Below, in pieces: positions 8,208 to 63,839 of a stretch of 64,000 nucleotides of DNA (positions are counted from its first letter, which is position 1; each line of letters opens with the position of its first letter). The position numbers and the translations under genes are program-made. The stretch covers positions 8,223-72,222 of the IMG/VR virus record IMGVR_UViG_3300045988_134667; one strand, written 5' to 3'. The notes below the pieces were generated by a model that saw only the letters and a program-made list of their open reading frames with translations, was not told where the DNA came from and ran no database searches. The stretch comes from a virus.

Positions 8208-8276
8208 AAATGATAGCACTTGAAAAAAGTCAAATAATATGCTATCTTTGAATATATAAAAGGAGGCAAAAATTAT

Positions 8277-29043: not shown

Positions 29044-29325
29044 GTGGAATATAGTATGGAAAATTATAAAATTAGTTATAATGGTGATACTCAAATTAAA
29101 AATATTCACCATATAGGTGTTGATTATAATGGAAATTATTATAGCGTGATTTTCGGAGAATATGTAAATGGAGGATTCTTTAGTATTCCGAACTGGAATT
29201 GCGGTGGTGAGTTAGCTGGGCTTAGTGATGTGTTTTGGAATACAGAATCTATTCAGAAATCATTAAAAAGTAAAAGAGCAGCTAAAGCTATTGCAAAAGC
29301 GATAGAAGATTACACAAAGGAGTGA
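29044..29325 (+). CDS. hypothetical protein
   Basis: ORF track. Confidence 0.5.
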   Translation: MEYSMENYKISYNGDTQIKNIHHIGVDYNGNYYSVIFGEYVNGGFFSIPNWNCGGELAGLSDVFWNTESIQKSLKSKRAAKAIAKAIEDYTKE

Positions 29326-30326
29326 TGATTATGTGTTACAAAATAGAAGTACAAAACAAAAATGCTGAAAAGCTTAATAGGAAGTTGGATGAGTTAAACG
29401 CACCACAGTTTTTAAGAGATTACTTGAATGAGTTGGAAAGCAAGAACGGAGCGTTAAATTATCTAGTGGCAATTAAAGATTTTTTACAGTGGTTGATTGA
29501 AAGCAATATTATTAATAAGAAATCAATTTCTGAAATAGAAGTTTCTGATTTTAGTGACTTGCGACCACAAAATATTAGTTCATACCTTAGATACAAGGAA
29601 ACAAATGGAATGTCGCCAACCACAACGGAGACAAGAAAAAATATCATTAAAAGTTTCATACAGGATATTTATTCATACAGAGAATGTTTATTAAGAGAAA
29701 TTTATAGCAACATAGAAGATTTTTACAAAATGATTAAATATAAAGGAATCCCATCTGGTAATAACTTGACTAAAAAACTTCCAACAGAAAAGCAGCTTAA
29801 TGATATGGAAGAGAAAATAATGTGGAAGAAAGATGAATGTGTGAGGAATAGGAATATTGCTATCTTTCGAGTTTTAAGAGGAACTGGAATAAGAGAATCT
29901 GAACTTGCCGGTTTGGATTTATCAGATTTACATTTAGATGAAGAAATGCCATATATTACTATTCTTGGTAAAGGTGTGTACAGAGAAATGCAAAACAGAA
30001 CTGTATATCTTAGCGGATCTGCTCTGAAGGCATTAAGAGAATGGTTAGAATACAGAAGTACCTTAGATAATATTGTAGATACGGAAGCAGTTTTTGTAAA
30101 TAAAAACGGTACACGTACAACAGAAAGAAATATCAAACAGATATTTGAAAATTATGGCAATGGAATTACACCACATATGATGAGACATTATTATGCTAGT
30201 GTAATGAATCAGAATGGGAATCTTGCATTTGTACAACAGCAGCTTGGGCATAGTAGTGTGAATACAACGGTTAATAATTATGCAAACGGAGCTGTTGGAA
30301 TGAAAGAAAAATTAATGGAGATGTGA
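29325..30326 (+). CDS. int: tyrosine recombinase / phage integrase
   Basis: C-terminal catalytic signature RGTGIRESEL ... HMMRHYYAS ... LGHSSVNTTVNNY (R, H-x-x-R and the Tyr nucleophile). Confidence 0.8.
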   Translation: MIMCYKIEVQNKNAEKLNRKLDELNAPQFLRDYLNELESKNGALNYLVAIKDFLQWLIESNIINKKSISEIEVSDFSDLRPQNISSYLRYKETNGMSPTTTETRKNIIKSFIQDIYSYRECLLREIYSNIEDFYKMIKYKGIPSGNNLTKKLPTEKQLNDMEEKIMWKKDECVRNRNIAIFRVLRGTGIRESELAGLDLSDLHLDEEMPYITILGKGVYREMQNRTVYLSGSALKALREWLEYRSTLDNIVDTEAVFVNKNGTRTTERNIKQIFENYGNGITPHMMRHYYASVMNQNGNLAFVQQQLGHSSVNTTVNNYANGAVGMKEKLMEM

Positions 30327-30328
30327 TT

Positions 30329-30523
30329 ATGGTTGAATATATTGGAAATAAAATCAGAACTGAAAAGAGAATAACAGTAAGAGGACTGGCAAAAGCTGCC
30401 GAAGTTGCTCCAAGTACGATTAGCAAGTGGGAAAATGGAAGTGCTGTTCCTGACTTAGCTGTACTTGATTTGGTTGCCAAAGCTATGAAAGTGCAACCAT
30501 TTGATCTTGTTAAATTTGTGTAA
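30329..30523 (+). CDS. XRE-family HTH regulator
   Basis: ITVRGLAKAAEVAPSTISKWENGSAVPDLAVLDLVAKAM. Confidence 0.65.
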   Translation: MVEYIGNKIRTEKRITVRGLAKAAEVAPSTISKWENGSAVPDLAVLDLVAKAMKVQPFDLVKFV

Positions 30524-30536
30524 TATGTATACGACA

Positions 30537-30755
30537 CTATTTCTTAGTGTCGCAGATAAAAATATCGTTTGGTGTACAATTTAACGCCTGGCATATTTTC
30601 TCGATAGTATCAAAACGAATGCTTTTTGTTTTTTCATTACAAATGTCACCAATATTATTACTAGAAATTCCAGTAGTTTTAGATAACCAATACTGTGTTT
30701 TCTTTTGATCTGCAAGAATTTGTTTGAGGTTTATTCTCATATTATATTCCTCCAT
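30537..30755 (-). CDS. XRE-family HTH regulator (repressor-like, divergent from the toxin operon)
   Basis: KKTQYWLSKTTGISSNNIGDICNEKTKSIRFDTIEKICQAL. Confidence 0.65.
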   Translation of the reverse strand: MEEYNMRINLKQILADQKKTQYWLSKTTGISSNNIGDICNEKTKSIRFDTIEKICQALNCTPNDIFICDTKK

Positions 30756-30810
30756 ATAAATTATTTAAAAATATAATACCAAAAAATATCATATTTTTCA
30801 ATAATATATC

Positions 30811-31881: not shown

Positions 31882-31954
31882 AGGGCATTCGCCAAGTGGT
31901 AAGGCACAGGATTTTGATTCCTGCATTACATCAGTTCGAATCTGATATGCCCTG
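31882..31954 (+). tRNA. tRNA-Gln (anticodon UUG)
   Basis: Cloverleaf with acceptor AGGGCAT/ATGCCCT, D-arm GCCAAGTGGTAAGGC, anticodon stem CAGGA/TCCTG with loop TTTTGAT, and T-loop TTCGAAT. Architecture is nearly identical to E. coli tRNA-Gln. Confidence 0.8.
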
Positions 31955-32113
31955 CTTTGTGACATTCCACCCGGTATGTTACAGAACGCAAGTGATTTCC
32001 TTGTAAGAGCAAAATGTGTAGTTGCTATAGTTCTACCATAGTTTAATCCACTAACGGATTACAAGCTGATACTATAGAACTTCCTGATAAACTTGCGATA
32101 GTGTCAGCTACTT

Positions 32114-32187
32114 GGATCATTAGCACAATTGGTTAGTGCATTCGGCTCATAACCGAAAGGCTCAGAGTTCAAGTCTCTGATGATCCA
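32114..32187 (+). tRNA. tRNA-Met or initiator/Ile-lysidine type (anticodon CAU)
   Basis: Acceptor GGATCAT/ATGATCC, D-arm GCACAATTGGTTAGTGC, anticodon stem TTCGG/CCGAA with loop CTCATAA, T-arm CAGAGTTCAAGTCTCTG. Confidence 0.8.
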
Positions 32188-32212
32188 TTGCTAAATCAAA
32201 CAAAGAGAGGAG

Positions 32213-37584: not shown

Positions 37585-39642
37585 ATGGATGGATTTATGA
37601 TGTTTAAGAAGGCTTTACAGAAGCACTTCAATGAAATGCAGAAAGAGGCAACACATTTATTTGAGGTAAATGTAGATAAGGATGAATTATGGAATACATA
37701 TCTTGATAGCTTCCCTGCTGGTACAAATAATATTTTCAGAGAGCGTAGGGAACATGATTGTAGTTGTTGTAGACAGTTTATTAAGAATATTGGTTCTGCT
37801 GTCACCATCAAAGATAATCAGATTCACACAATTTGGGAACTGAATCTTGGCGATACAACATACCAGCCAGTGTGCGATGCACTTGACGCTTTTGTAAAGG
37901 CTCATACAGTTACAGATATTTATACAACTAAGTTCCCTAAAATTGGTACAGATTTTAACTTTGAGGAAATCAATGGAAAATCTCATCAGTGGGATCATTT
38001 CTTCTTAGAGCTTCCAAGCAAATTCGTAAATAGAAGTAGTCGTTCTAATGAGGAAGTTAAAGGACAGTTCAGAGATACAAGAAATGTATTTAAGCGTTCT
38101 CTTGATGAAATCACAATGGATGCGCTTGATACGATTCTTGAACTGATTAATTCCAATACGCTTTATAAGGGTGAAGAATGGAAGACTGTGCTCACAGAGT
38201 TTAAAAAGTACAAGAAAGAATATGATAAGTTGACATCTGAATCTGATAAGGAATTGTACGCTTGGGAGAAGTCTGTAACAGCAGGTATTGCAATTGGCAG
38301 AATTAGAAATCATTCTATTGGAACACTCCTTGTAAATGTGAGCGAAGATATGGATTTGGATACTGCTGTTAGAAAATATGAGCAGATTGTAGCACCGAGC
38401 AACTATAAAAGACCCAAGGCCATTTTCACAAAGAAGATGCTTGAGGACGCAAAGAAGACAATTACAGAACTGGGATATATGGATTCATTGCAGCGAAGAT
38501 TTGCTACTTTGAATGATATTACAGTCAATAATGTATTGTTCTCTAATAAGAGTGCTGCAAGAAGAATGAATGGTGCAAATGATATTTTTGGACAGATGGA
38601 AAAGGATGTTGTTGTAAGCCCTAAGAAGTTTTCTAAGGTCGAAGAGATTTCAGCACAGGATTTTATTGATAAGGTACTTCCAACTGCAAAAGAGATTGAA
38701 GCTTTTGTAGAAAATAAACATGAGAAGAACTTTGTTTCTATGATTGCACCTGTTAATCCAGACGCTAAGACAATGTTCAAATGGAATAATGGATTATCTT
38801 GGGCTTATTCAGGAAACATTACTGACTCTGATATGAAGCAGAATGTAAAAGCTGCTGGCGGTAATGTCGATGGTGTACTCAGATTTTCAATTCAGTGGAA
38901 CGAAGATGGACATGACAATTATGACCTTGATGCACATTGTGTTGAGCCAAATGGAACAGAAATCTATTATGGTAGTTACAAAGCACCAAGAATTACTTCT
39001 ATGGGCGGTCAGTTAGATGTTGATGTTATTAATCCATGTGGAAAAGTTGCAGTAGAGAATATTACATGGCAGGATTTATCAAGAATGAGACCAGGAACAT
39101 ATAGATTATTTGTACATCAGTATTCAGGTGCAGTAAGGCATGGATTCAGAGCAGAAGTTGAGTTCAATGGAGAGATTTATTCATTTGATTATAGTAACCC
39201 TATGAGAACTGGCGAGAATGTTCAGGTGGCAGAAGTTACACTTGATGAGAATGGCAACTTCTCAATTAAGGAAAAGCTGTCTGGAAGTTCATCTATTTCA
39301 AGTCGTGAGATTTGGGGTGTAAATACAAATCAGTTTGCTCCTGTATCAGTAATTAGTTACAGTCCAAACTATTTTGATGAACAGGATGGAATTGGTCATA
39401 GACATTTATTCTTCTTCCTGAAGGATTGTGTAAATAGTGAAGAGCCTAATGGATTCTATCTTGAGTTTCTTGACAATGATTTAATGAAGCATAAGAGAGT
39501 ATTTGAGGCTTTAGGTGCTAAGTGTCATGTAGAAGATACTGATGATCAGCTTTCAGGAATTGGATTCTCTATGACAAAGAGAGCAGATTTAGTTGTTAAG
39601 GTTAAGGGCGCAACAGAGCGTATAATGAAGATTAAGTTTTAA
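37585..39642 (+). CDS. large hypothetical protein (685 aa), no recognisable domain
   Basis: Longest ORF in the window; contains REHDCSCCRQF; followed directly by the 39663 gene. Confidence 0.7.
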   Translation: MDGFMMFKKALQKHFNEMQKEATHLFEVNVDKDELWNTYLDSFPAGTNNIFRERREHDCSCCRQFIKNIGSAVTIKDNQIHTIWELNLGDTTYQPVCDALDAFVKAHTVTDIYTTKFPKIGTDFNFEEINGKSHQWDHFFLELPSKFVNRSSRSNEEVKGQFRDTRNVFKRSLDEITMDALDTILELINSNTLYKGEEWKTVLTEFKKYKKEYDKLTSESDKELYAWEKSVTAGIAIGRIRNHSIGTLLVNVSEDMDLDTAVRKYEQIVAPSNYKRPKAIFTKKMLEDAKKTITELGYMDSLQRRFATLNDITVNNVLFSNKSAARRMNGANDIFGQMEKDVVVSPKKFSKVEEISAQDFIDKVLPTAKEIEAFVENKHEKNFVSMIAPVNPDAKTMFKWNNGLSWAYSGNITDSDMKQNVKAAGGNVDGVLRFSIQWNEDGHDNYDLDAHCVEPNGTEIYYGSYKAPRITSMGGQLDVDVINPCGKVAVENITWQDLSRMRPGTYRLFVHQYSGAVRHGFRAEVEFNGEIYSFDYSNPMRTGENVQVAEVTLDENGNFSIKEKLSGSSSISSREIWGVNTNQFAPVSVISYSPNYFDEQDGIGHRHLFFFLKDCVNSEEPNGFYLEFLDNDLMKHKRVFEALGAKCHVEDTDDQLSGIGFSMTKRADLVVKVKGATERIMKIKF

Positions 39643-39662: not shown

Positions 39663-40439
39663 TTGTTAGAAGATTTTGAATTAAAGAAAAATATGTCAAA
39701 AAAATTTTTTAATGGTTCAAAATGGGTTTCTAAAAAATCTGGTGAGTTTGAAATTATAGGTAATTTAAATAAGCCAATTTATGATAAAAAGGGTGTTCCA
39801 TCATATCCGTACTATTTGTGTAGATTTAATGACGGTACAATTGTGATATCAAATAGAAACGTTATTAAAAGTGGTGGAACACACAACCCTAATACTCCTA
39901 CTGTATGTGGTGTTGGTTATCTTGGTATTGGAAAATGGAAAGCGACACAAAATGGAGAAAATACAAAGGAGTATACGTTATGGTCTGGAATGCTATATAG
40001 ATGTTACTGCAATTCGAAATACAGGTATAATTTTAAAACATATGAGAAATGCACCGTAGATTCATCGTGGCATAATTTTCAAACATTCTGCGAAGATATT
40101 ACATCTTTAACAAATTATCAACATTGGAAAAATGAAGAAAATTGGCAACTTGATAAAGATAGTATCGTTCATGGAAATACAATATATAGCAAGGAAACTT
40201 GTATGTTTTTACCACTGATTGATAATGTAAAAGAAATGAATGATAGAACACGAAAAAATCGGCTGACGGGTTTAACATATGTTGCATACTCACCAGATGG
40301 TTTAAGGATAGAATTTAAAAATCAGACTCAATTTGCAAAAGAAAATAATTTAGAAGGTTCATCAATTTGGAAATGTTTAAATGGATCATTAAATACACAT
40401 AAAGGTTGGCGTTTTAAGATTAAAAATAAAGGAGAATAA
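39663..40439 (+). CDS. putative DNA-binding or endonuclease-associated protein (W/Y-rich WSGMLYRCY...Y..Y...C.V...W..F..F motif)
   Basis: TTG start with SD AGGAGA plus 7 nt. The motif resembles those in phage HNH/AP2-type proteins; low confidence. Confidence 0.45.
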   Translation: MLEDFELKKNMSKKFFNGSKWVSKKSGEFEIIGNLNKPIYDKKGVPSYPYYLCRFNDGTIVISNRNVIKSGGTHNPNTPTVCGVGYLGIGKWKATQNGENTKEYTLWSGMLYRCYCNSKYRYNFKTYEKCTVDSSWHNFQTFCEDITSLTNYQHWKNEENWQLDKDSIVHGNTIYSKETCMFLPLIDNVKEMNDRTRKNRLTGLTYVAYSPDGLRIEFKNQTQFAKENNLEGSSIWKCLNGSLNTHKGWRFKIKNKGE

Positions 40440-40889: not shown

Positions 40890-42467
40890 ATGAGTAGTAT
40901 TTTAAGCAACTTAGGAATGGTAATTCCGATTGTAGCAATTGTATTAGTTGTAGTTGGTTTGTTAGTAGCAGGTTATGTAAAGGCTTCACCTGATAGAGCA
41001 TACATAATTTCTGGACTTAGGAAAGAACCAAAGGTGTTAATTGGTAAAGCTGGAATCAAGATTCCGTTTTTAGAAAAGAAAGATGAGCTGAATTTGCAGT
41101 TGATTCCAATTGATGTAAAGACAAGTAGTGCAGTTCCAACAGCAGATTATATTAATATTAATGTAGATGCTGCGGTCAACATAAAGGTAAGTTCAGACAA
41201 TACAAGATTACAGCTTGCAGCTCAAAACTTCTTAAATAAGCCAGTTGATTATATTGGAAGGGTGGCAAGAGAAGTTCTCGAAGGAAATATGAGAGAAATT
41301 GTTGGCAAGATGAATTTAGAGGAAATGGTTTCAGATAGACAGAAATTTGCCGAACTTGTAAAAGAGAATGCAGAACCAGATCTTGCAGCTATGGGACTTG
41401 ACATTGTAAGTTTCAATGTACAGAACTTTGTTGATGAAAATGGTGTTATTGAGAACCTTGGCGTAGATAATATTGTTAAGATTCAGAAAAATGCAGCTAT
41501 CTCAAGAGCCGAAAGTGAAAAAGAGATTGCAAAAGCAAGAGCTATCGCAAAGAAGGAAGCAAACGATGCGGAAGTAAGTTCTGAATTAGAAATTGCAAAT
41601 GCACAGGCTGAAGCTCAGAAGAAGAAAGCAATCGTCCAGGCTAATGCTAATAGAGAATCACAGGAAGCTCAGATTGAAGCAGATACTCTTATTGCACAGA
41701 AAGAGAATGAACTTGCAATTAAAAAGGCAGAATTACAGAAAGATGCTGATACAAAGAAAGCAAGTGCAGATGCAGCATATAATATTCAGCAGGAAACAGA
41801 GAGAAAGACAGTTGAGATTGCAACTGCTGATGCAAATCTTGCCCGTCAGGAAAAGGCTATTACTTTAAAAGAGAAAGAAGTAGAACTTACAGAGAGAACT
41901 CTTGAGGCAACAGTAAAGAAACAGGCAGAGGCAGATAAATACGCAAAACAGCAGGAAGCAGATGCTAAGTTATACGAAACTCAGAGACAGTCAGAAGCAA
42001 AACTTTTCGAGAGGCAGAAGAATGCTGAAGCAGAAAAGTTTGAGCAGGAAAAGAAAGCAGAAGCTGAAAAAGCAACAGCAGATGCCAACAGATATACAAT
42101 GGAACAGGAGGCAGAAGGTATTCGCAGCAAAGGACGGGCAGAAGCGGATGCGATTAAAGCAAAAGCATTAGCAGAAGCAGAAGGTATTGAAAAGAAAGCA
42201 GAAGCCATGAAACAGATGGGCGAAGCTGCGGTATTAGAGATGTACTTCAAAGCGATGCCTGAGATTGCGAAGAATATTGCAGAACCGCTTGCGAAGGTTG
42301 ATAAGATTACAATGTACGGTGATGGAAATTCATCTAAACTGATGAAAGATATTATGAATACTCTTAACCAGGTAACAGATGGAATGAAAGAATCTACTGG
42401 CATTGATCTTAGTTCTGTACTTGCTGGTTTTGCAGGTGCAAAGATTGCTGACAAAACACAGAAATAA
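40890..42467 (+). CDS. flotillin / SPFH (band-7) family membrane protein (FloT/YuaG-like)
   Basis: N-terminal TM segment (VIPIVAIVLVVVGLLVAGYV), an SPFH core, a long Ala/Glu/Lys-rich flotillin-repeat region (EAQKKKA, AEAEK), and a 525-aa length typical of bacterial FloT. Confidence 0.75.
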   Translation: MSSILSNLGMVIPIVAIVLVVVGLLVAGYVKASPDRAYIISGLRKEPKVLIGKAGIKIPFLEKKDELNLQLIPIDVKTSSAVPTADYININVDAAVNIKVSSDNTRLQLAAQNFLNKPVDYIGRVAREVLEGNMREIVGKMNLEEMVSDRQKFAELVKENAEPDLAAMGLDIVSFNVQNFVDENGVIENLGVDNIVKIQKNAAISRAESEKEIAKARAIAKKEANDAEVSSELEIANAQAEAQKKKAIVQANANRESQEAQIEADTLIAQKENELAIKKAELQKDADTKKASADAAYNIQQETERKTVEIATADANLARQEKAITLKEKEVELTERTLEATVKKQAEADKYAKQQEADAKLYETQRQSEAKLFERQKNAEAEKFEQEKKAEAEKATADANRYTMEQEAEGIRSKGRAEADAIKAKALAEAEGIEKKAEAMKQMGEAAVLEMYFKAMPEIAKNIAEPLAKVDKITMYGDGNSSKLMKDIMNTLNQVTDGMKESTGIDLSSVLAGFAGAKIADKTQK

Positions 42468-43557: not shown

Positions 43558-44331
43558 ATGGCAGTATTTGTAACAGGCGATACACATGGAAATCCTACAC
43601 GATTAAGTAAAGATAGTTTCTATGAACAGAAAGATTTCTCTGGTAATAGAGATGAAAATACTGTAATTATTTTAGGAGATTTCGGTCTTGTATGGAACAG
43701 AGATGGCGAAAGTAAACAGGAAAAATATTGGTTGGATTGGTTAAATCAGAAACCATTCACAACAGTATTTATTGATGGAAATCATGAGAATCATAAAAGA
43801 CTTGCAACTTATCATATAAAAGAATGGTGTGGCGGTAAGGTTCATGAAGTTAGATCTAATGTATTACATTTAATGCGTGGTGAAGTGTTTACCATTAAAG
43901 ATAAGAAATTCTTTGCATTTGGTGGTGCATCAAGTCATGATATTCAGGATGGCATTCTTGATTACAATGACGAAGATTGGAGAGAGAAAGCCAAGAAGCT
44001 TGATAAGCAAGGCAAGTATATGTATCGTATTAATGGCTTATCTTGGTGGAAAGAAGAATTGCCGACAGATGAAGAAATGCAGCATGGACTAGATATGTTG
44101 AATGAAAACAATAATATAGTTGATTATATTATCACACATAGTCCTTCTACATCAGAGTTATATCTTATGGGCGGTAAAGGGTTGTATGAACCAGATGTGT
44201 TGACTAATTATTTGGAAGAAGTGAAAGCTGCAACTGAATATAAAAAGCATTTGTTTGGACATATGCATGTAAATAAGGCAATCAACGACAAAGATATTTG
44301 TTTGTATGAACAGATTATTAGGATATTGTAG
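43558..44331 (+). CDS. calcineurin-like metallophosphoesterase (phage Ser/Thr phosphatase-like)
   Basis: GDTHG, ILGDFG and GNHEN metal-binding motifs. Confidence 0.75.
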   Translation: MAVFVTGDTHGNPTRLSKDSFYEQKDFSGNRDENTVIILGDFGLVWNRDGESKQEKYWLDWLNQKPFTTVFIDGNHENHKRLATYHIKEWCGGKVHEVRSNVLHLMRGEVFTIKDKKFFAFGGASSHDIQDGILDYNDEDWREKAKKLDKQGKYMYRINGLSWWKEELPTDEEMQHGLDMLNENNNIVDYIITHSPSTSELYLMGGKGLYEPDVLTNYLEEVKAATEYKKHLFGHMHVNKAINDKDICLYEQIIRIL

Positions 44332-45412: not shown

Positions 45413-46933
45413 ATGGAATTAACACGTCTGCTAAAACCATAGGAAAAAAATAATTATTGTGAGTTAAGTGTAATTGAGCTTTGTAGTGGTATTGGTGCGC
45501 AGATGAAGGGAATTGATAATACTCATCTATTTAATGCAAATATGATTGCAACAGCAGATTTAGACAAAGAAGTAGTAGTTAGTTATGCTGCAATGCATTG
45601 TGGTTTGACTAATGAGATGATTGAAAACTATGAAGATTATCCAAGCAAAGAAGAAATGGTAAGACAGCTTACAGATAAGAGACTTGGATATGATTTTAAG
45701 AAAGATGTTCCGTATGATTGGGAAAAACTTTCACGAAAGAAGAACAAGACAAAAGGTATTGAGAAATATTGGTTAGCAGACCATATTTCACATAATCTTG
45801 GCGATATGATGCAGATTGAGTCACTGCCATATAGTGATTTACTTACATACTCGACTCCATGCACAGATTTGTCAATCGCCGGTAAACAGGAAGGATTAAA
45901 GTGGACATGTCATGATTGTGGTTGTGAATATGATCCATCAGAATTAGATGTAGATACTCGTTATACTTGCCCTAATTGTGGCAGTCACAACATTAAATCA
46001 ACTCGTTCAGGTTTATTGTATGAAGTTGAGAGACTTCTTGTAAAAGCAAAAGAGAATAATACATTACCAAAGTATTTGCTTATGGAGAATGTAGATGCTC
46101 TTGTATCAAAGAAGTATATTGACAGTTTTAAGGATTGGCTGATTCGACTTGATAATTTGGGATATAACTCATATTATCAGACAATCAATGCAAAGAATAC
46201 AGGTATTCCACAGAATCGAAATAGAATCTTCTGTATCTCTATTCGTAAGGATATTGATACCAAGTCTTTTGAATTTCCACAGCCTTTTGATACAGGAATC
46301 AGATTAAAGGATTTATTAGAAACAGATAGCAGTGTTTTGGAGAAATATTTCTTATCTGATGAAGTACAGAAAAGACTTCAGATAACAGATCCAAAATTTG
46401 AAAAGAATATTGTTGGTACTACAAAACCTGAATTCAGAACTATCGGTCAGAGAGATTTAGTTTATCAGCAGGATTCAGTAATGGGTACTTTAGTGGCAAC
46501 TGATTATAAACAACCAAAACAGATTCTTGCCAATTCAAATAATATAAATAGACTTTTTAATATTTATGGTGAAAATAAAGGAACTGGATTTGCAGGAAAT
46601 GTTTGGGATAAAGATTATATTTCTCCAACAATAACAACATGTCAAGGAGGAAATCGGCAACCAATGGTCGAAGAAGAGAGAGACAATTTGAGAGTTGTGA
46701 GAAAGCTTACGCCAAAAGAGTGCCATAGGCTTATGGGATTCGATGATGTTGATTATGAGAACTGTAAAGCAGTTGGAATGTCTGATACTCAGGGATATAA
46801 ACAAAGCGGTAACAGTATAGTAACAACTTGCATCTCTTTGTTGATTGAGCATTTATATAAGGCTCAGTATGACAATACATATATTTGTACAGATGAGAAG
46901 ATGGTAAATTTTCATCAGCCACAAGCGGATTAA
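45413..46933 (+). CDS. DNA (cytosine-5)-methyltransferase with a zinc-ribbon insertion. Motif I is encoded upstream of the track ORF start (45503), separated from a possible ATG (45413) by an in-frame TAG (45440-45442).
   Basis: Within track ORF 45503..46933: motif IV STPCTDLS, motif VI LLMENVDAL, motif VIII GIPQNRNRIF, motif X GNSIVTT, and an inserted CHDCGC...CPNCGSH. Motif I (IELCSGIGAQ) is read at 45473-45502 in the same frame, with no ATG, GTG or TTG between the TAG and 45503. Confidence 0.7.
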
Positions 46934-47780: not shown

Positions 47781-49140
47781 TACAATAGAGAGTCAGTTAT
47801 TGACTCTCTATAACAGAGGAGGTGAAACAATATAAATAAAGCGGAAAGACATGTAATAAACAAAAACCATCCAATGTATTTAGCTTGTGATAACTTATGT
47901 TTTCTGGCAAAGAATATGTATAATTTATGCAATTATACAATTCGCCAAGAATTCTTTGAGACAAAGAAAGTTAAGAAGTATGGTGACTTAAATAAGGAAC
48001 TAAAACATACAGATGCTTTTATGGAACTTGGATCAAATGCAGCACAGATGGTTACAAAAGCATTGTGTAAGTCTTGGAAATCATTTCTTGTATCAGTTAA
48101 AGATTATACTATTCATCCAGAAAAGTATTTGGGAAAACCTAAGATACCAGCTTATAAAAAGAAAGACGGTAGATTTGTTTGTACTTTAACTAATATGCAG
48201 ACTAAAGTGAAAGATGGTTATTTGTATTTTGCTTTTAAGAGAATGAAAGAGTATAACAATTTAATTCTCACAAAAGTTACAGGTCATCATTTGTCTACGA
48301 GAATTGTTCCAAAAGGTGGTTGTTATATTATTGAAATTGTTTATGACGATGAAAAGCAATGTAAAAGTGAATTGGATAGAAACAGAATTGCTTCGATTGA
48401 TTTAGGTGTAAATAACTTTGTAACAATGGTAAATAACATAGGAGAATCTTCTATTGTTATAAATGGCAAAGGAATTAAATCTTATAATCAGTATTGGAAT
48501 AAAAAGGTTTCTAAATTAAGAAGTATTGCGAAAACCGTAAATGGATCTGATTGGACTAAACAGATGCAGAGCCTTACAAATAAAAGATATTTCAAGATGG
48601 AGTATTTCATGCATTGTGCGAGCAAATGGATTGTTAGTTATTGTGTGAAACATAATATTGGAACACTTGTTATTGGTAAGAATGATGGTTGGAAACAGAA
48701 AACAAATATGTGTAAAATTACAAATCAGACTTTTACTCAAATACCATACGAAAGTTTTCTTGAAAAGCTTGGATATAAGTGTGAAGAAACTGGTATAGAT
48801 TTGATTAAAACAGAAGAAGCTTATACTTCAGGAACTTCTTTCTTAGACAATGAGTTACCTGTTAAAGAAAATTATAACAAGTCAAGAAGAGTTTATAGAG
48901 GATTATTTAAAAGCAACAACGGAGAATATATAAATGCCGATGTTAATGGTGCATTTCAAATAATGCGTAAAGTATTCTCAAATGTAAAAGCAGATGAGAT
49001 AGTGGGTGCATATTCACACCCTGTAATTATAAATTTGTAATTGTAAATGGAAAATAAAAAGCCAATGAATGCCAAGATTGATTCAATGCATGAGAAAAAT
49101 CTGTTTAAATTACAGCCAATGCCAAGTTTTGTGTATCAGG
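47781..49140 (+). mobile_element. IS200/IS605-family element carrying tnpB only (IS1341-like); right boundary approximate
   Basis: Perfect subterminal hairpin ATAGAGAGTCA-gttat-TGACTCTCTAT at 47785-47811, immediately upstream of tnpB. Repeated GCCAATG(A)ATGCCAAG segments lie downstream of tnpB, in the expected right-end / guide-RNA region. Confidence 0.55.
47874..49040 (+). CDS. tnpB: TnpB (IS605 OrfB-type RuvC-like RNA-guided nuclease family)
   Basis: RuvC-I IASIDLGVNNF, RuvC-II IGKNDGW, RuvC-III ADVNGAFQIMRKV. The usual CxxC zinc finger appears to be replaced. Confidence 0.7.
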   Translation: MYLACDNLCFLAKNMYNLCNYTIRQEFFETKKVKKYGDLNKELKHTDAFMELGSNAAQMVTKALCKSWKSFLVSVKDYTIHPEKYLGKPKIPAYKKKDGRFVCTLTNMQTKVKDGYLYFAFKRMKEYNNLILTKVTGHHLSTRIVPKGGCYIIEIVYDDEKQCKSELDRNRIASIDLGVNNFVTMVNNIGESSIVINGKGIKSYNQYWNKKVSKLRSIAKTVNGSDWTKQMQSLTNKRYFKMEYFMHCASKWIVSYCVKHNIGTLVIGKNDGWKQKTNMCKITNQTFTQIPYESFLEKLGYKCEETGIDLIKTEEAYTSGTSFLDNELPVKENYNKSRRVYRGLFKSNNGEYINADVNGAFQIMRKVFSNVKADEIVGAYSHPVIINL

Positions 49141-54679: not shown

Positions 54680-55246
54680 ATGAATAAAAAATATAATATT
54701 ATTTATGCTGATCCACCTTGGGATTATGGAAATACTAAAAATCTCAACGGAGAATTTTGGGGAATGGCAGATAAACATTACGAGGTAATGAAATTTAAAG
54801 ATTTATGTAATTTACCAATCGGTAATATTGCAGCAGATGATTGTTTTTTATTTTTATGGGTTACATCGCCATTCCTTGAAAAAGGATTTGAACTTATAAA
54901 ATCATGGGGATTTAAATATGCAACTGTTGGTTTTGTATGGGTAAAGATGAAAAATGATATGTCAGAAGTTAGAAAAGATGGATTGGGCAAATATACTATC
55001 TCAAATGCGGAATATTGTCTAATAGCACGAAAAGGTAAATATTGGCGTGAAGCGAGAAATGTACAACAGATTATAGAATATCCCAAAACAGAACATTCTG
55101 AAAAGCCAAAAGAAATAAGAGACAGAATAGTATCTTTATGTGGTAATTTGCCAAGAGTAGAATTATTTGCAAGAGATTTATGTGAAGGTTGGGATTCTAT
55201 TGGCAATGAAATTGACGGAAGAGATATTAGAGATGTAATTAAGTAA
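54680..55246 (+). CDS. MT-A70-family N6-adenine DNA methyltransferase (orphan)
   Basis: Catalytic DPPW motif (IIYADPPWDYGN); about 190 aa, typical of phage MT-A70 MTases. Confidence 0.75.
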   Translation: MNKKYNIIYADPPWDYGNTKNLNGEFWGMADKHYEVMKFKDLCNLPIGNIAADDCFLFLWVTSPFLEKGFELIKSWGFKYATVGFVWVKMKNDMSEVRKDGLGKYTISNAEYCLIARKGKYWREARNVQQIIEYPKTEHSEKPKEIRDRIVSLCGNLPRVELFARDLCEGWDSIGNEIDGRDIRDVIK

Positions 55247-58641: not shown

Positions 58642-59715
58642 GTGAAATATGATTTCGCAACAAAGACTGCTATTGGAATTAAAGGTAAACCAGTAAAAAA
58701 TCTATGTAGTCAACTAAGTGGCTTTACCTTAAATGAGTTATTTGATTGTTGTGATGATGAAAAGTATGCAAAGTTTTTACGATTTATTAGAAATTCAGAA
58801 ACATACTCATATTCAATAAGCAACATAGGAACAATTCTTGATAGAGTTCCAAGATATGATAGATTTGAACAAATCTTTTCAGCAGGATTTGATGACATTA
58901 TCAAAGATGGTTATCGGTTCAAGTATTCTATAAATGAGATTCCAAAATCTCTAATCAAATTATGTCGTAAATATCCCATTAAATTATCAAATAATACTGT
59001 TAAGTATTATAAAGAAAATCAAGATGCGCATTACATAGCTTATAACTTGGATTATCTAAGTTTAGATTCTGATGATATTTATATCGTTTGGAATACAGAA
59101 ACATGGGATAGAGTTGATGGTGCTTGTATTTATTATTCTTTTTTCAATGAATTAGTGAATGAATTTGGATATAACGCAAAGGATTTATGGTTGTATCTGG
59201 ATAGAATCAAGACATTTGAGGCAGTTGAAGATATGGGTTTCTTAATTCGTGAATTGTACGATTATGCTAATATGATGAATCAACTTAGCCCAAAGTATGA
59301 AAAATATCCAAGACATTTCCTTACTACACATAGAATTGCTTGTAGAAATTACAATCGAATGAAGAAAGAATTCTCAGAAGAGTTATTTAAAAAGAGAATA
59401 AATAAACAGTACGAATGCTCTTTTGGTGATTACATATTTATTTATCCAGAATCTACACAGGATATTAAAGATGAAGCGACAATGCAAAACAACTGCGTAG
59501 CATCATACATAGATAAGGTTATTGATGGCGAATGTCACATTCTTTTCTTGAGAAAGAAGAATAAACCAGATGAGAGTTTGGTAACGATTGAAGTAAGAAA
59601 TAACCATATTGTACAAGCTAGACGAAGATTCAATGATGAAGTAACAGCAGAGGATCAGAAAGCTATTGATGCGTTTAATAAAAAGTTTGCAAATAAGGAG
59701 GATAAAGCAGCATGA
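58642..59715 (+). CDS. PcfJ-like protein
   Basis: C-terminal MQNNCVASYIDKVIDGECHILFLR...VTIEV resembles the PcfJ-domain signature; assigned from memory of the family. Confidence 0.45.
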   Translation: MKYDFATKTAIGIKGKPVKNLCSQLSGFTLNELFDCCDDEKYAKFLRFIRNSETYSYSISNIGTILDRVPRYDRFEQIFSAGFDDIIKDGYRFKYSINEIPKSLIKLCRKYPIKLSNNTVKYYKENQDAHYIAYNLDYLSLDSDDIYIVWNTETWDRVDGACIYYSFFNELVNEFGYNAKDLWLYLDRIKTFEAVEDMGFLIRELYDYANMMNQLSPKYEKYPRHFLTTHRIACRNYNRMKKEFSEELFKKRINKQYECSFGDYIFIYPESTQDIKDEATMQNNCVASYIDKVIDGECHILFLRKKNKPDESLVTIEVRNNHIVQARRRFNDEVTAEDQKAIDAFNKKFANKEDKAA

Positions 59716-60773: not shown

Positions 60774-60827
60774 ACAAAATGGACAAGAAATATCGGTTTC
60801 ATGCGAAGTTTAGAAAGAGAGAAAAAT

Positions 60828-61169
60828 ATGAAAATTTTAGAAGGACACGAAAAAGAATACAAGGATTGGTACGACAAGAATAGTGACGGATACAGCAGAG
60901 CTTGCTTCACTTATGCTGAAAGGTGGGCTGAACTGCTAGAAGCAGAAATTGACAAGGGCAATGATGTTATGAAGTGCTTTGTTGATAATGCAGACAGATT
61001 GAGCCGTGAAGCAGACACAGAGGGTATAACAGGGTTTATGTACGGATGTGCAGTTAGTATTCTTTCACAGTGTTGGAAGTATGGAGAATATCTTAGAAAG
61101 TGGCACAATAAGGAATACAGCTATGATGGTGATGGTGTTGTGAATCCAGCAATTTTAACAATTGGTTAA
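60828..61169 (+). CDS. hypothetical protein
   Basis: Trimmed to an ATG (MKILEGH). Confidence 0.5.
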   Translation: MKILEGHEKEYKDWYDKNSDGYSRACFTYAERWAELLEAEIDKGNDVMKCFVDNADRLSREADTEGITGFMYGCAVSILSQCWKYGEYLRKWHNKEYSYDGDGVVNPAILTIG

Positions 61170-61201: not shown

Positions 61202-61492
61202 ATGAATTTTGGACAGGCAATTGAAGCTTTAAGGAACGGTAAAAAGGTAGCAAGAGTTGGGTGGAACGGTAAAGGTATGTTTTTGTATATGACAACAGGA
61301 AGTGTTGTTCATTTAGATGAAATGAAATCAGAAACAGCAAATTATTTAAGAAGTTTTTGTAAAGATAAAGGTATGGACGAAATTGAAATTTGTCCACATA
61401 TTGATATGAAGACAGCAGACAATAAGTTAGTTATTGGATGGCTTGCGAGTCAGACAGATATGCTTGCAGAAGATTGGGACGTGGTAGAATAA
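61202..61492 (+). CDS. DUF2829-family protein (Thoeris anti-defence Tad2-like candidate)
   Basis: N-terminus MNFGQAIEALRNGKKVARVGWNGKGMF matches the characteristic DUF2829 opening (M.FGEA.EALK.GKKV.R.GWNGKG). Confidence 0.55.
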   Translation: MNFGQAIEALRNGKKVARVGWNGKGMFLYMTTGSVVHLDEMKSETANYLRSFCKDKGMDEIEICPHIDMKTADNKLVIGWLASQTDMLAEDWDVVE

Positions 61493-61596: not shown

Positions 61597-62457
61597 TTGA
61601 TACATACGAATTTAATACAAGCATTAGAAAAGCAGATTGAGTTCTGTAATCAATATACAAGATATAAATGTGGGGTATTTGTAAGAACAAAAGAACAATG
61701 CGAGATTGTAATGAAATGCATTTCAAACTTATTGTTAGATCAAAGCAATACTCAATTAAAAAATTATGCATGGAAGTTAAGTTGCTATTGGAATAATGGT
61801 AATTGTATTGAAGTATTGTCTGTAAATGATTCCATACGAGGATATAAATTTAATGGTGTAATAATTGAAAATGAAATCGAAAGAGATGTTGTTAATTCTT
61901 TGATTATGCCATATTTAATGGTAAGGACTGATTCTACTGGACATAAAATTGAAGAATTTAATAATGTTAAAGAGAGAATATTTACAGTAGATATTAGCAA
62001 GAGTGATATCACCGAAAGTAAAAATCGTTCAATTTATATTTCGACTGGTTGGCAGAGAAATATATTAAGTAGAAGATTGAGAAGTTCAAATATATTTATT
62101 GATGAAAGTTTTAAGAAGGAGTATACATGTATGTTTAATAATCACACAGCAGCTTTTAGAGTTGCACAGGTAGGAACAGATAAGATTTATGTTTACAATG
62201 CAATTGGTATTCCAAAGGAGAATATTAAATATGAGACAGAGTTTGTCAATAGAACCAAGGAAACTTATCTAAATATCAAAGGTGAACATAAAGTTGAAGG
62301 TATTGGATTTGAGAATGAAATAGATGTTCATTTGCTTATTGATACTAATGTATATGATAAGTATGAAGTTGATTTCCATGATGGTCTTGTTTTTGTTTTT
62401 TTACATGAAATTATCAATGAGAAGCCTGTTTTAGAGGATGTTTCAAAGAATAGTTAA
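61597..62457 (+). CDS. hypothetical protein upstream of the Thg1-like gene
   Basis: ORF track. The TTG start directly abuts the SD, so the true start is uncertain. Confidence 0.5.
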   Translation: MIHTNLIQALEKQIEFCNQYTRYKCGVFVRTKEQCEIVMKCISNLLLDQSNTQLKNYAWKLSCYWNNGNCIEVLSVNDSIRGYKFNGVIIENEIERDVVNSLIMPYLMVRTDSTGHKIEEFNNVKERIFTVDISKSDITESKNRSIYISTGWQRNILSRRLRSSNIFIDESFKKEYTCMFNNHTAAFRVAQVGTDKIYVYNAIGIPKENIKYETEFVNRTKETYLNIKGEHKVEGIGFENEIDVHLLIDTNVYDKYEVDFHDGLVFVFLHEIINEKPVLEDVSKNS

Positions 62458-62490
62458 GAGAGAATAATATATTAAAAGAGAGGTACATAT

Positions 62491-63348
62491 ATGCCAGTAC
62501 ATGATGATTTAGGCGTTAGGATGAAGACATTTTATGAGCAGATCCCAAAGACAAAACTGATGAGAAGGTGTCCAGTTGCTATCCGCATTGATGGAAAAGC
62601 GTTTCACACATTCACAAGAGGATTCCAGAAACCGTTTGATGAAGTGTTAATTAAGTCTATGCAGGAAACAATGAAATACTTATGTGAGAATATTCAGGGC
62701 TGTGTTCTTGGTTACACGCAGTCAGATGAGATTACACTAATTCTTATTGATTATAAGAAGCTCACATCTTCCGCATGGTTTGATTATGAAGTGCAAAAGA
62801 TTTGTAGTATTGCTGCAAGTATGGCTACGATGGCATTTAATACATTCTTTGCTAAAAATGTTTATTTTACTGATAAGTTTGATGAACATGGGAATATCAT
62901 TGACGAAGAATATGTTTCTATTCATTTAGCCCATGTCAAAGCAGTTGACAAAGGTGCAATGTTCGATGCTCGTTGTTTCAATATTCCAAAAGAAGAAGTG
63001 ACAAATCTCATATATTGGAGACAATTAGACGCTTCTCGTAATTCAATTCAGATGGTAGGTCAAGCCAATTTTTCACACAAGGAATTACAGAATAAGTCAT
63101 GTAATGATATTCAAAACATGCTTATGACTCAGAAAGATATTAACTGGAACGATTTACCGACTTATCAGAAGAGAGGAAGCTGTTGTGTAAAAATGTATCA
63201 GACTGCTAATGGTGTTTTTGAAAGTCATGCAGAAGATGAATTAGTCGAAAATGGCAGGACATATTGGAGTATTGATACAAATATCCCTATTTTCAAGGGC
63301 GAAGGTAGAGAATATATTGATAGGTTAGTATTCGTTGGTGAAGAGTAA
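62491..63348 (+). CDS. Thg1-like protein (tRNA-His guanylyltransferase / 3'-5' nucleotidyltransferase family)
   Basis: VAIRIDGKAFHTFTRGFQKPFDEVLIKSM resembles the Thg1 N-terminal catalytic-core segment. MFDARCFNIPKEEVTNLIYWRQLD matches the downstream Thg1 WRQ region. Confidence 0.6.
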   Translation: MPVHDDLGVRMKTFYEQIPKTKLMRRCPVAIRIDGKAFHTFTRGFQKPFDEVLIKSMQETMKYLCENIQGCVLGYTQSDEITLILIDYKKLTSSAWFDYEVQKICSIAASMATMAFNTFFAKNVYFTDKFDEHGNIIDEEYVSIHLAHVKAVDKGAMFDARCFNIPKEEVTNLIYWRQLDASRNSIQMVGQANFSHKELQNKSCNDIQNMLMTQKDINWNDLPTYQKRGSCCVKMYQTANGVFESHAEDELVENGRTYWSIDTNIPIFKGEGREYIDRLVFVGEE

Positions 63349-63369: not shown

Positions 63370-63591
63370 ATGAGTAATTTAAAAGAAAAATTAGCAAAAG
63401 GTGGAGTAACAGCAATTATTGTCATTACAATTTTAGCTGTATGCTATGGACTTAGTTGGATTGTTACATGTGGAATAATCAAGCTTATTACAATGTGTTT
63501 TGGTTTGACATTTAAATGGTCTATTGCAACTGGTATTTGGCTGATTATCTGCATTTTAAAGTCAGTTTTTAATGTAACAGCGAAGAAATAG
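63370..63591 (+). CDS. small two-TM membrane protein (holin-like candidate)
   Basis: GVTAIIVITILAVCYGLSWIV and IATGIWLIICIL with a charged C-terminus. Confidence 0.4.
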   Translation: MSNLKEKLAKGGVTAIIVITILAVCYGLSWIVTCGIIKLITMCFGLTFKWSIATGIWLIICILKSVFNVTAKK

Positions 63592-63839
63592 AGTCGAAGG
63601 AAACTGACATTTCTTTGGCTTTACAAACCTAGTGTTTATAAGGGTTTCAGAGGTCAAAAATTTCAAAAATGCTCAAATCGAGCAAAATCCCTAATTTTCA
63701 ATGATTTTTAGAGAATAACAAAAATGAGGTGCTGAAAACCCTTATAAATCAAGGGTTTTACAGTATCAATATCAAGAAACAGAGAATATAAGAATAGCAA
63801 GAAATCACTGTTTCATGTGAATTTTGAGGAGGTGAGAAA

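Follow-up and report, generated by a model that had tools for sequence, protein, structure and literature searches.

Eukaryotic Thg1 (human 3OTB, yeast 5XOX, Candida 3WBZ) adds a non-templated guanosine at position -1 (G-1) to tRNA-His, which it recognizes at the anticodon through the eukaryote-specific HINNLYN motif (PMC6471195). The Thg1-like protein (TLP) of Bacillus thuringiensis, BtTLP (PDB 4KGK/4KGM), repairs 5'-truncated tRNAs in vitro by templated 3'-5' addition and prefers such repair whatever the tRNA identity (PMC3061083). In the archaeal cellular enzyme MaTLP (Methanosarcina acetivorans; PDB 5AXK-5AXN, with tRNA), a beta-hairpin, R198-R215, binds the tRNA elbow, with R215 as an elbow contact, and is proposed to measure acceptor-stem length (PMC4820378). 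What bacterial-type TLPs do physiologically has been an open question since 2010, when their repair activity in vitro was shown. A 2019 review of the Thg1/TLP family makes no mention of phages (PMC6471195), and our literature search found no experimental study of a phage TLP. Analyzing a 64,000-nucleotide stretch of virus DNA from IMG/VR (record IMGVR_UViG_3300045988_134667, positions 8,223 to 72,222; hereafter the window), we found that one gene encodes an intact protein of the Thg1/TLP family and that two hypervariable segments of it, HV1 and HV2, recombine between related phages as cassettes, independently of the conserved core. The gene itself is ordinary, belonging to a known family that has commonly been annotated in phages since at least 2013; for the cassette-like hypervariability, as far as we found, there is no earlier description in the literature searched.

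The gene and its presumed ribosome-binding signal lie as follows.

62491..63348, + strand: TLP gene, ATG start, 285 amino acids plus stop (open reading frame listing, Pfam, PHROG, PDB, AlphaFold and Foldseek)
62477..62483, + strand: Shine-Dalgarno-like AGAGAGG, 7 nucleotides before the TLP ATG (read from the sequence)

An earlier interpretation made without database searches (the sequence-only reading) had placed a Thg1-like protein of 285 amino acids here, and the open reading frame (ORF) is exactly as it described, with the quoted motifs IRIDGKAFHTF, KPFDE and WRQ at residues 31-41, 47-51 and 176-178. The Pfam search and structure comparison that it had proposed both bear out the family. Pfam Thg1 (PF04446) matches residues 10-166 with E=3.7e-30 and 104.9 bits against a cut-off of 29.2, and PHROG 4717 ("tRNA-His guanylyltransferase") covers the protein end to end (E=1.1e-88); no NCBIfam model matches. 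The best sequence match among solved structures is BtTLP (4kgk, E=1.1e-63, about 45% identical by HMMER alignment), in two blocks that span both domains, followed by MaTLP (E=2e-12, about 23% identical) and then by the much more distant eukaryotic Thg1 (E=1e-10 to 3e-6), which shares the superfamily, the palm fold and the two-metal carboxylates. Pfam Thg1C (PF14413) stays below threshold at the C-terminus (20.7 bits against 26.3), where the domain is present: residues 156-282 align to BtTLP 126-239 with 105 bits, and the predicted model superposes over its full length. This AlphaFold model, built from an alignment of 58 diverse relatives, has a pLDDT of 92.4 and a pTM of 0.89; the diverse alignment was used instead of a shallow one of close relatives, which gave a pLDDT of 46. 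All 32 Foldseek matches in the PDB at E<1e-3 are Thg1/TLP structures with the palm-plus-fingers fold, the best being BtTLP (target-normalized TM 0.92-0.93), with MaTLP at TM 0.77-0.82.

The residues that matter for catalysis and tRNA binding in the characterized enzymes are present at the equivalent places.

62584..62592, + strand: R32-I33-D34, the nucleoside triphosphate (NTP)-binding arginine and the first metal-binding aspartate (BtTLP R28 and D30; 4kgk alignment, roles from PMC3701042)
62722..62730, + strand: S78-D79-E80, the activation-step serine and the second and third catalytic carboxylates (BtTLP S74, D75 and E76; alignment, PMC3701042)
62971..62973, + strand: R161, contact to the triphosphate of the incoming NTP (BtTLP R131; 4kgk alignment, PMC3701042)
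63016..63042, + strand: W176-R177-Q178...R183-N184, of which R183/N184 correspond to MaTLP R136/N137 (alignments to 5axk and 5xox; PMC4820378)

In BtTLP, R28 binds the incoming NTP, D30 and D75 are metal-binding carboxylates, and E76, a third conserved carboxylate that is not a metal ligand, positions R28; E12 forms salt bridges with the two arginines holding the incoming NTP, F34/H35 touch the nucleotide of the activation site, and R131 contacts the NTP triphosphate (PMC3701042). The three carboxylates of the window protein, D34, D79 and E80, all align with these and are invariant or nearly so in three alignments of relatives. The sequence-only reading had named the lack of a significant Thg1/TLP profile match and of the catalytic carboxylates as its refutation, and it withstands that check. 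E16 aligns with BtTLP E12, F38/H39 with F34/H35, and K47 and K103 with further functional residues; M188 aligns with BtTLP M158, at the position of the catalytic asparagine of Thg1. On the tRNA side, R183/N184 stand at the positions of MaTLP R136/N137, the residues that grip the 5' nucleotide of the tRNA and the base paired with it (PMC4820378), and R256 at that of MaTLP R215. It is almost certain that the protein acts as a templated 3'-5' polymerase, and 5'-truncated tRNAs would, by analogy with BtTLP and MaTLP, be its most likely substrates.

By sequence E-values, bacterial and archaeal TLPs are closer to the protein than eukaryotic Thg1 is, and the structure ranking concurs. Moreover, the HINNLYN motif is absent, the aligned segment being ASRNSI with a gap. 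Judged by this replacement, the protein is a TLP of the repair type, not a eukaryotic-type enzyme specific for adding G-1 to tRNA-His. The kinship extends to the reference enzyme itself: over its N-terminal half, BtTLP is 76% identical to the TLP of Bacillus phage Bcp1 (locus L010, 5998-6729; full-length E=2.5e-126), so that the biochemistry of BtTLP comes from the same phage-associated Firmicute clade, and this "bacterial" TLP may be of phage or prophage origin.

Homologues occur in 164 of 50,697 GenBank phage records, all less than 60% identical to the window TLP, and their carriers include Bacillus (46), Prevotella, Caulobacter, Mycobacterium and Fusobacterium phages. Most of the listed records annotate the gene as tRNA-His guanylyltransferase. 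The PHROG 4717 members among them, from Bacillus phages Bcp1, Bc431v3 and G, Fusobacterium phage Fnu1 and Staphylococcus phage PMBT8, are of the same family and sit in large phages. Among 1.84 billion protein cluster representatives, 5,559 clusters match at E<=1e-3 and 1,247 at E<=1e-30.

Two segments of the protein stand apart from its conserved core.

62842..62949, + strand: HV1, residues 118-153, a hypervariable two-helix arm between the palm helix and the last palm strand (column entropy, allele classes, model)
63193..63270, + strand: HV2, residues 235-260, a hypervariable extended beta-hairpin (entropy, alignment to MaTLP R198-R215, model)

Column entropy among the best 120 closest proteins rises from 0.05-0.3 bits (about 0.1) in the core to 1.0-1.3 bits in HV2 and about 2 bits in HV1. 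Where BtTLP has a loop of 9 residues, HV1 is a 35-residue arm not seen in the solved structures; in the model, the palm helix is extended here (101-126) and followed by a loop and a returning helix (139-154). MaTLP also has a short loop at this place, the versions examined from Bacillus and Staphylococcus phages do not have the arm, and the TLP of Fusobacterium phage FNU3 has a shorter one. More widely, the HV1 site is an insertion hot spot, holding 14-61 residues in distant relatives and short only in the group of Bacillus/Staphylococcus phages and BtTLP. HV2 matches the MaTLP hairpin R198-R215 residue for residue, with R256 at the place of R215, and is modeled as strands 230-237 and 257-262 around a loop of lower confidence. 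The hairpin spans 3 to 38 residues among relatives and is 12 residues shorter in BtTLP, for which no cassette exchange has been described.

The distribution of alleles shows that these segments move separately from the rest of the gene. Sixty-five distinct IMG/VR genes carry 35 HV1 classes (22-51 amino acids) and 25 HV2 classes (6-36 amino acids). Two loci, L024 and L035, are essentially identical across 7 kb, yet differ at about 65 positions within 120 nucleotides at HV1, where their alleles, of 34 and 38 amino acids, are unrelated; another pair, L067 and L071, has the same HV1 and unrelated HV2. Pairs of genes with 93-97% core nucleotide identity have an HV1 class in common in only 13% of cases and an HV2 class in 72%. 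Conversely, one HV1 class is found on cores just 76-79% identical, the same cassette alleles persist across cores of only 76-81% identity, and two HV1 classes and two HV2 classes occur in all four combinations.

Selection acts on both core and cassettes. The core is strongly constrained, with a proportion of nonsynonymous differences (pN) of 0.083 against a synonymous one (pS) of 0.68. Within an HV1 allele class, pS is 0.105 against 0.393 for the core and is the lower of the two in 40 of 53 pairs, and the cassettes are under purifying selection (HV1 pN/pS about 0.36). In the pair L036 and L068, HV2 is 98.5% identical with a pS of 0, and the core has a pS of 0.69. A diversity-generating retroelement was considered as the source and rejected, because allele lengths vary, the window contains no template copy longer than 19 nucleotides, and the Pfam survey of the window found no reverse transcriptase domain. 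Nor did recombination anchors emerge beside the cassettes, where synonymous sites are not unusually conserved. Elsewhere in the 7 kb of L024 and L035, the other diverged patch is at L024 7342-7742, within an ORF for a cysteine-rich protein of about 124 amino acids that is found upstream of the TLP gene in 29 of 80 related loci and has no Pfam match.

An identical TLP is encoded on ten metagenome contigs, and the best 120 closest proteins, 74-99% identical, come mostly from metagenome assemblies, where the contigs reach about 900 kb. In IMG/VR, relatives are encoded in 360 stretches, and many of these belong to contigs of 100-186 kb. Relatives in species genomes belong to Lachnospiraceae and other Clostridia, with named hosts including Robinsoniella peoriensis, Lacrimispora sp. 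HJ-01 (chromosomal), Blautia intestinihominis, Coprococcus and Hungatella. On the 3' side of the TLP gene, DUF1653 is followed by the SPbeta-type replication families YorF, YorH, DnaB, RecJ and PolIII-alpha. Judged by these replication families and by the clostridial locations of its relatives, the element is thus a large (roughly 150 kb) temperate phage or prophage of gut Clostridia/Lachnospiraceae. With the YorF-like replication gene as anchor, 14 of 68 loci have TLP no more than 10 kb upstream, and in at least two other contigs TLP lies elsewhere, the stretches compared being less than whole contigs. In mid-window, a tyrosine integrase (29322-30326), two small helix-turn-helix (Cro/C1-type) regulators (about 30300-30760) and a DUF6618 protein just upstream look like a lysogeny module.

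Immediate neighbors were counted in 80 related loci and tRNA linkage in 60.

61711..62457, + strand: upstream ORF, 248 amino acids from the ATG used in related contigs (ORF call, related loci)
63370..63591, + strand: downstream hydrophobic ORF of 73 amino acids (phrog_36365, a family without assigned function; 9 of 80 related loci)
60801..61169 and 61202..61492, + strand: Tad4 and a Tad2-like gene, anti-Thoeris (PF25186, E=2.4e-36; PF11195, E=3.9e-27)

The TLP gene forms the edge of an accessory region, and gene content upstream of it is highly variable among otherwise related phages. In the window, the Tad4/Tad2 pair lies about 1 kb upstream and a PcfJ-like gene farther up (58642-59715), while relatives have PAPS-reductase-like, LemA and MT-A70 genes in this region. 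The upstream ORF of 248 amino acids has no match in Pfam, PHROG, PADLOC or GenBank phages, and an ORF of the same size upstream of the TLP gene in Staphylococcus phage PMBT8 proved unrelated to it. A conserved partner gene was rejected: the 248- and 73-residue ORFs are each present in just 9 of 80 loci, and the best cluster reaches 29 of 80. The downstream ORF had been called holin-like by the sequence-only reading, a label that finds no support, as its PHROG family has no known function and no lysis genes are nearby; it is hydrophobic by eye and is flanked by the TLP gene on one side and by DUF1653 and the replication genes on the other. PADLOC defense models gave no match for TLP and nine other window proteins.

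The window also contains two tRNA genes.

31882-31955: tRNA-Gln(UUG) (ARAGORN)
32113-32188: tRNA(CAU) (ARAGORN, Rfam alignment)

That the phage encodes tRNAs of its own had been part of the case for a tRNA-directed function. The tRNAs are there, but about 30 kb from the TLP gene and unlinked to it. Both have fully paired acceptor stems, so nothing about them points to a need for 5' editing. The CAU tRNA, for which elongator Met and Ile2 are the candidates, shows G1:C72 and A73 when aligned to Rfam and is one base longer in ARAGORN, because U-1 can pair with A73. The tRNA-Gln(UUG) recurs in related phages (L050, L052, L054, L068, L069 and L077), and in L054 and L068 ARAGORN also reports an odd tRNA with a two-base "anticodon".

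How might these features fit together? We lean slightly toward a catalytically competent TLP that would rebuild 5'-truncated tRNAs and whose loops would be diversified by a variable partner. Following the characterized relatives, a 5'-monophosphate RNA end would be activated with ATP or GTP, or a 5'-triphosphate end used directly, and the missing nucleotides would be added singly, the 3' strand of the acceptor stem selecting each by Watson-Crick pairing. Addition would halt at the complete stem, a stop that in the archaeal enzyme is set by the flexible beta-hairpin reaching the tRNA elbow. During infection of Lachnospiraceae, host or phage tRNAs truncated at the 5' end would be rebuilt and translation sustained. 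Such repair could answer a host attack on tRNA or be a form of quality control, and the variable partner behind HV1 and HV2 could be a host sensor, an inhibitor, a nuclease or a range of differing RNA substrates.

The cassette pattern suggests molecular conflict. A conflict-related role is plausible because the gene lies in a variable accessory region, has occasional anti-defense or RNA-repair neighbors and carries many exchanged alleles that appear to be selectively maintained. The tRNA-maintenance or counter-defense function put forward by the sequence-only reading accordingly retains some support, from the accessory-region site, the Tad2/Tad4 neighbors and the hypervariable loops. In its stronger form, phage TLPs would be counter-defense enzymes: a host nuclease or exonuclease would trim tRNA 5' ends, TLP would rebuild them, and the cassettes would answer a variable host factor or host-specific RNA damage. 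We consider this stronger form unlikely, though it has a conceptual precedent in Pnk and Rnl1 of phage T4, which repair tRNA damage inflicted by the host anticodon nuclease PrrC. The T4 chemistry differs, in that the ends of a cut anticodon loop are healed and sealed and no 5' end is extended, and T4-type repair genes are absent from the window. Some relatives have genes reminiscent of them: L002 (1-1000), L016 (994-1881) and L085 (11663-12547) carry a P-loop kinase-HD fusion gene at a distance of up to about 9 kb from TLP, and in L002 an RNA ligase gene (PF09414) adjoins it, a set resembling T4-like RNA repair. The L002 kinase-HD protein has no homologue in the window.

Several observations weigh against a tRNA-repair enzyme with partner-driven loops. 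In the literature searched, tRNA-cleaving defenses cut anticodon loops or stems or the D, T and variable loops, others cut the 3' strand of the acceptor stem or the CCA tail, and none is known to leave 5'-truncated tRNAs; the damage for TLP to repair is therefore hypothetical. The genomic context is loose as well: just 8 of 60 loci have tRNA genes at a distance of 8 kb or less from TLP, and no neighbor is kept in more than 29 of 80. No more than 3 of 80 loci have Tad2 in the 2 kb upstream, and the count for Tad4 is the same, which rules them out as regular neighbors. Among window ORFs of at least 60 amino acids, the Pfam survey turned up neither an RNA ligase nor a polynucleotide kinase nor a CCA-adding enzyme, and thus no complete RNA-repair module. 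HV1 and HV2 are both net acidic, which is atypical of simple RNA-binding loops, and the commonest HV2 class lacks the arginine that corresponds to MaTLP R215. Finally, divergence between allele classes is saturated, with pN close to pS, and positive selection therefore falls short of formal demonstration.

Other explanations have to be weighed against the same evidence. The hypervariability could be functionally meaningless, with tolerant surface loops made mosaic by generally high phage recombination in a plain housekeeping or auxiliary gene. The near equality of pN and pS between classes would fit this, as would the wide length range at the HV1 site of distant relatives, the ordinary synonymous sites flanking the cassettes and the poor conservation of the hairpin in archaeal TLPs (PMC4820378). 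This reading, however, sits poorly with purifying selection within allele classes, with the retention of alleles on cores 76-81% identical, their synonymous sites often closer than those of the surrounding gene, and with HV1 being one of only two diverged patches in the 7 kb of L024 and L035; on these grounds we find it doubtful. Alternatively, the loops might set specificity of an active 3'-5' polymerase for RNAs other than tRNA, such as small RNAs, phage transcripts or primers. TLPs recognize more kinds of RNA than Thg1 does and do so without regard to the anticodon (PMC6471195), the HV2 hairpin is highly variable in length among relatives, and the lack of the elbow-binding arginine in the commonest HV2 class implies that elbow-based tRNA recognition may not be universal in the clade. 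Yet R183/N184, the pair that would hold the tRNA 5' end and its partner, are conserved, the nearest characterized enzyme works on tRNAs (PMC3061083), and we saw no candidate non-tRNA substrate near the TLP gene, all of which makes this explanation quite improbable.

The customary label of these genes, in PHROG 4717 and in GenBank phages alike, implies a true tRNA-His guanylyltransferase that would add G-1 to a phage or host tRNA-His without that identity nucleotide. BtTLP is able to add a templated N-1 to tRNA-His (PMC3061083), and MaTLP retains a second, anticodon-dependent mode of tRNA-His binding (PMC4820378). We nevertheless regard G-1 addition as very unlikely to be the function here, in view of the segment ASRNSI where HINNLYN would be expected (motif role, PMC6471195) and the lack of a tRNA-His gene, both in the window and at up to 8 kb from TLP in the 60 related loci. 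Moreover, PMC3061083 reports that BtTLP favors repair 5- to 160-fold over -1 addition and that G-1 is genome-encoded in most bacteria.

If the stronger, counter-defense reading is right, it would give the first physiological role to BtTLP-type bacterial TLPs, close kin of the phage genes. The phage kinship of BtTLP, the accessory-region site and the exchangeable loops together set a testable direction, a phage-host conflict over tRNA 5' ends, and raise the question of what the loops are for, the choice of substrate or escape from recognition by the host. In addition, the natural library of loop variants could aid the engineering of 3'-5' polymerases.

Other genes near TLP, in the window and in its relatives, deserve brief mention. 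A gene for an adenylosuccinate-synthetase-like protein of about 363 amino acids lies a few kb upstream of TLP in 23 of 80 loci (for example L001 4652-5743, L002 5938-7029 and L074 2553-3668) and is absent from the window; its size presumably points to a PurZ-type enzyme and 2-aminoadenine DNA. In Fusobacterium phage FNU3, a gene annotated as "prohibitin" is found 0.7 kb downstream of TLP, and the window has, at 40890-42467, a gene for a membrane-anchored SPFH/Band 7 and flotillin-like protein of 525 amino acids. Past the 73-residue ORF, at 63637-63648 and 63735-63759, is a 9-bp inverted repeat, AAAACCCTT-N7-AAGGGTTTT, and the motif TTATAAGGGTTT recurs in the opposite orientation about 100 nucleotides upstream of it; this intergenic repeat could be an operator or a terminator.

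Farther into the accessory region, a TnpB-like protein with OrfB_IS605 and Cas12f1-like TNB domains is encoded at 47874-49040. A C5 cytosine DNA methylase (45503-46933), an MT-A70 adenine methylase (54680-55246) and a homing endonuclease of the I-HmuI/NUMOD type (39663-40439) are probably anti-restriction and selfish-element cargo. The ORF at 43558-44331, whose product begins MAVFVTGDTHGNP and contains GNHEN farther on, resembles a calcineurin-type metallophosphoesterase, though no Pfam match reached 1e-4. At 37585-39642, a protein of 685 amino acids, also without a Pfam match, corresponds end to end to phrog_1735 (E=5e-267), a family without known function.

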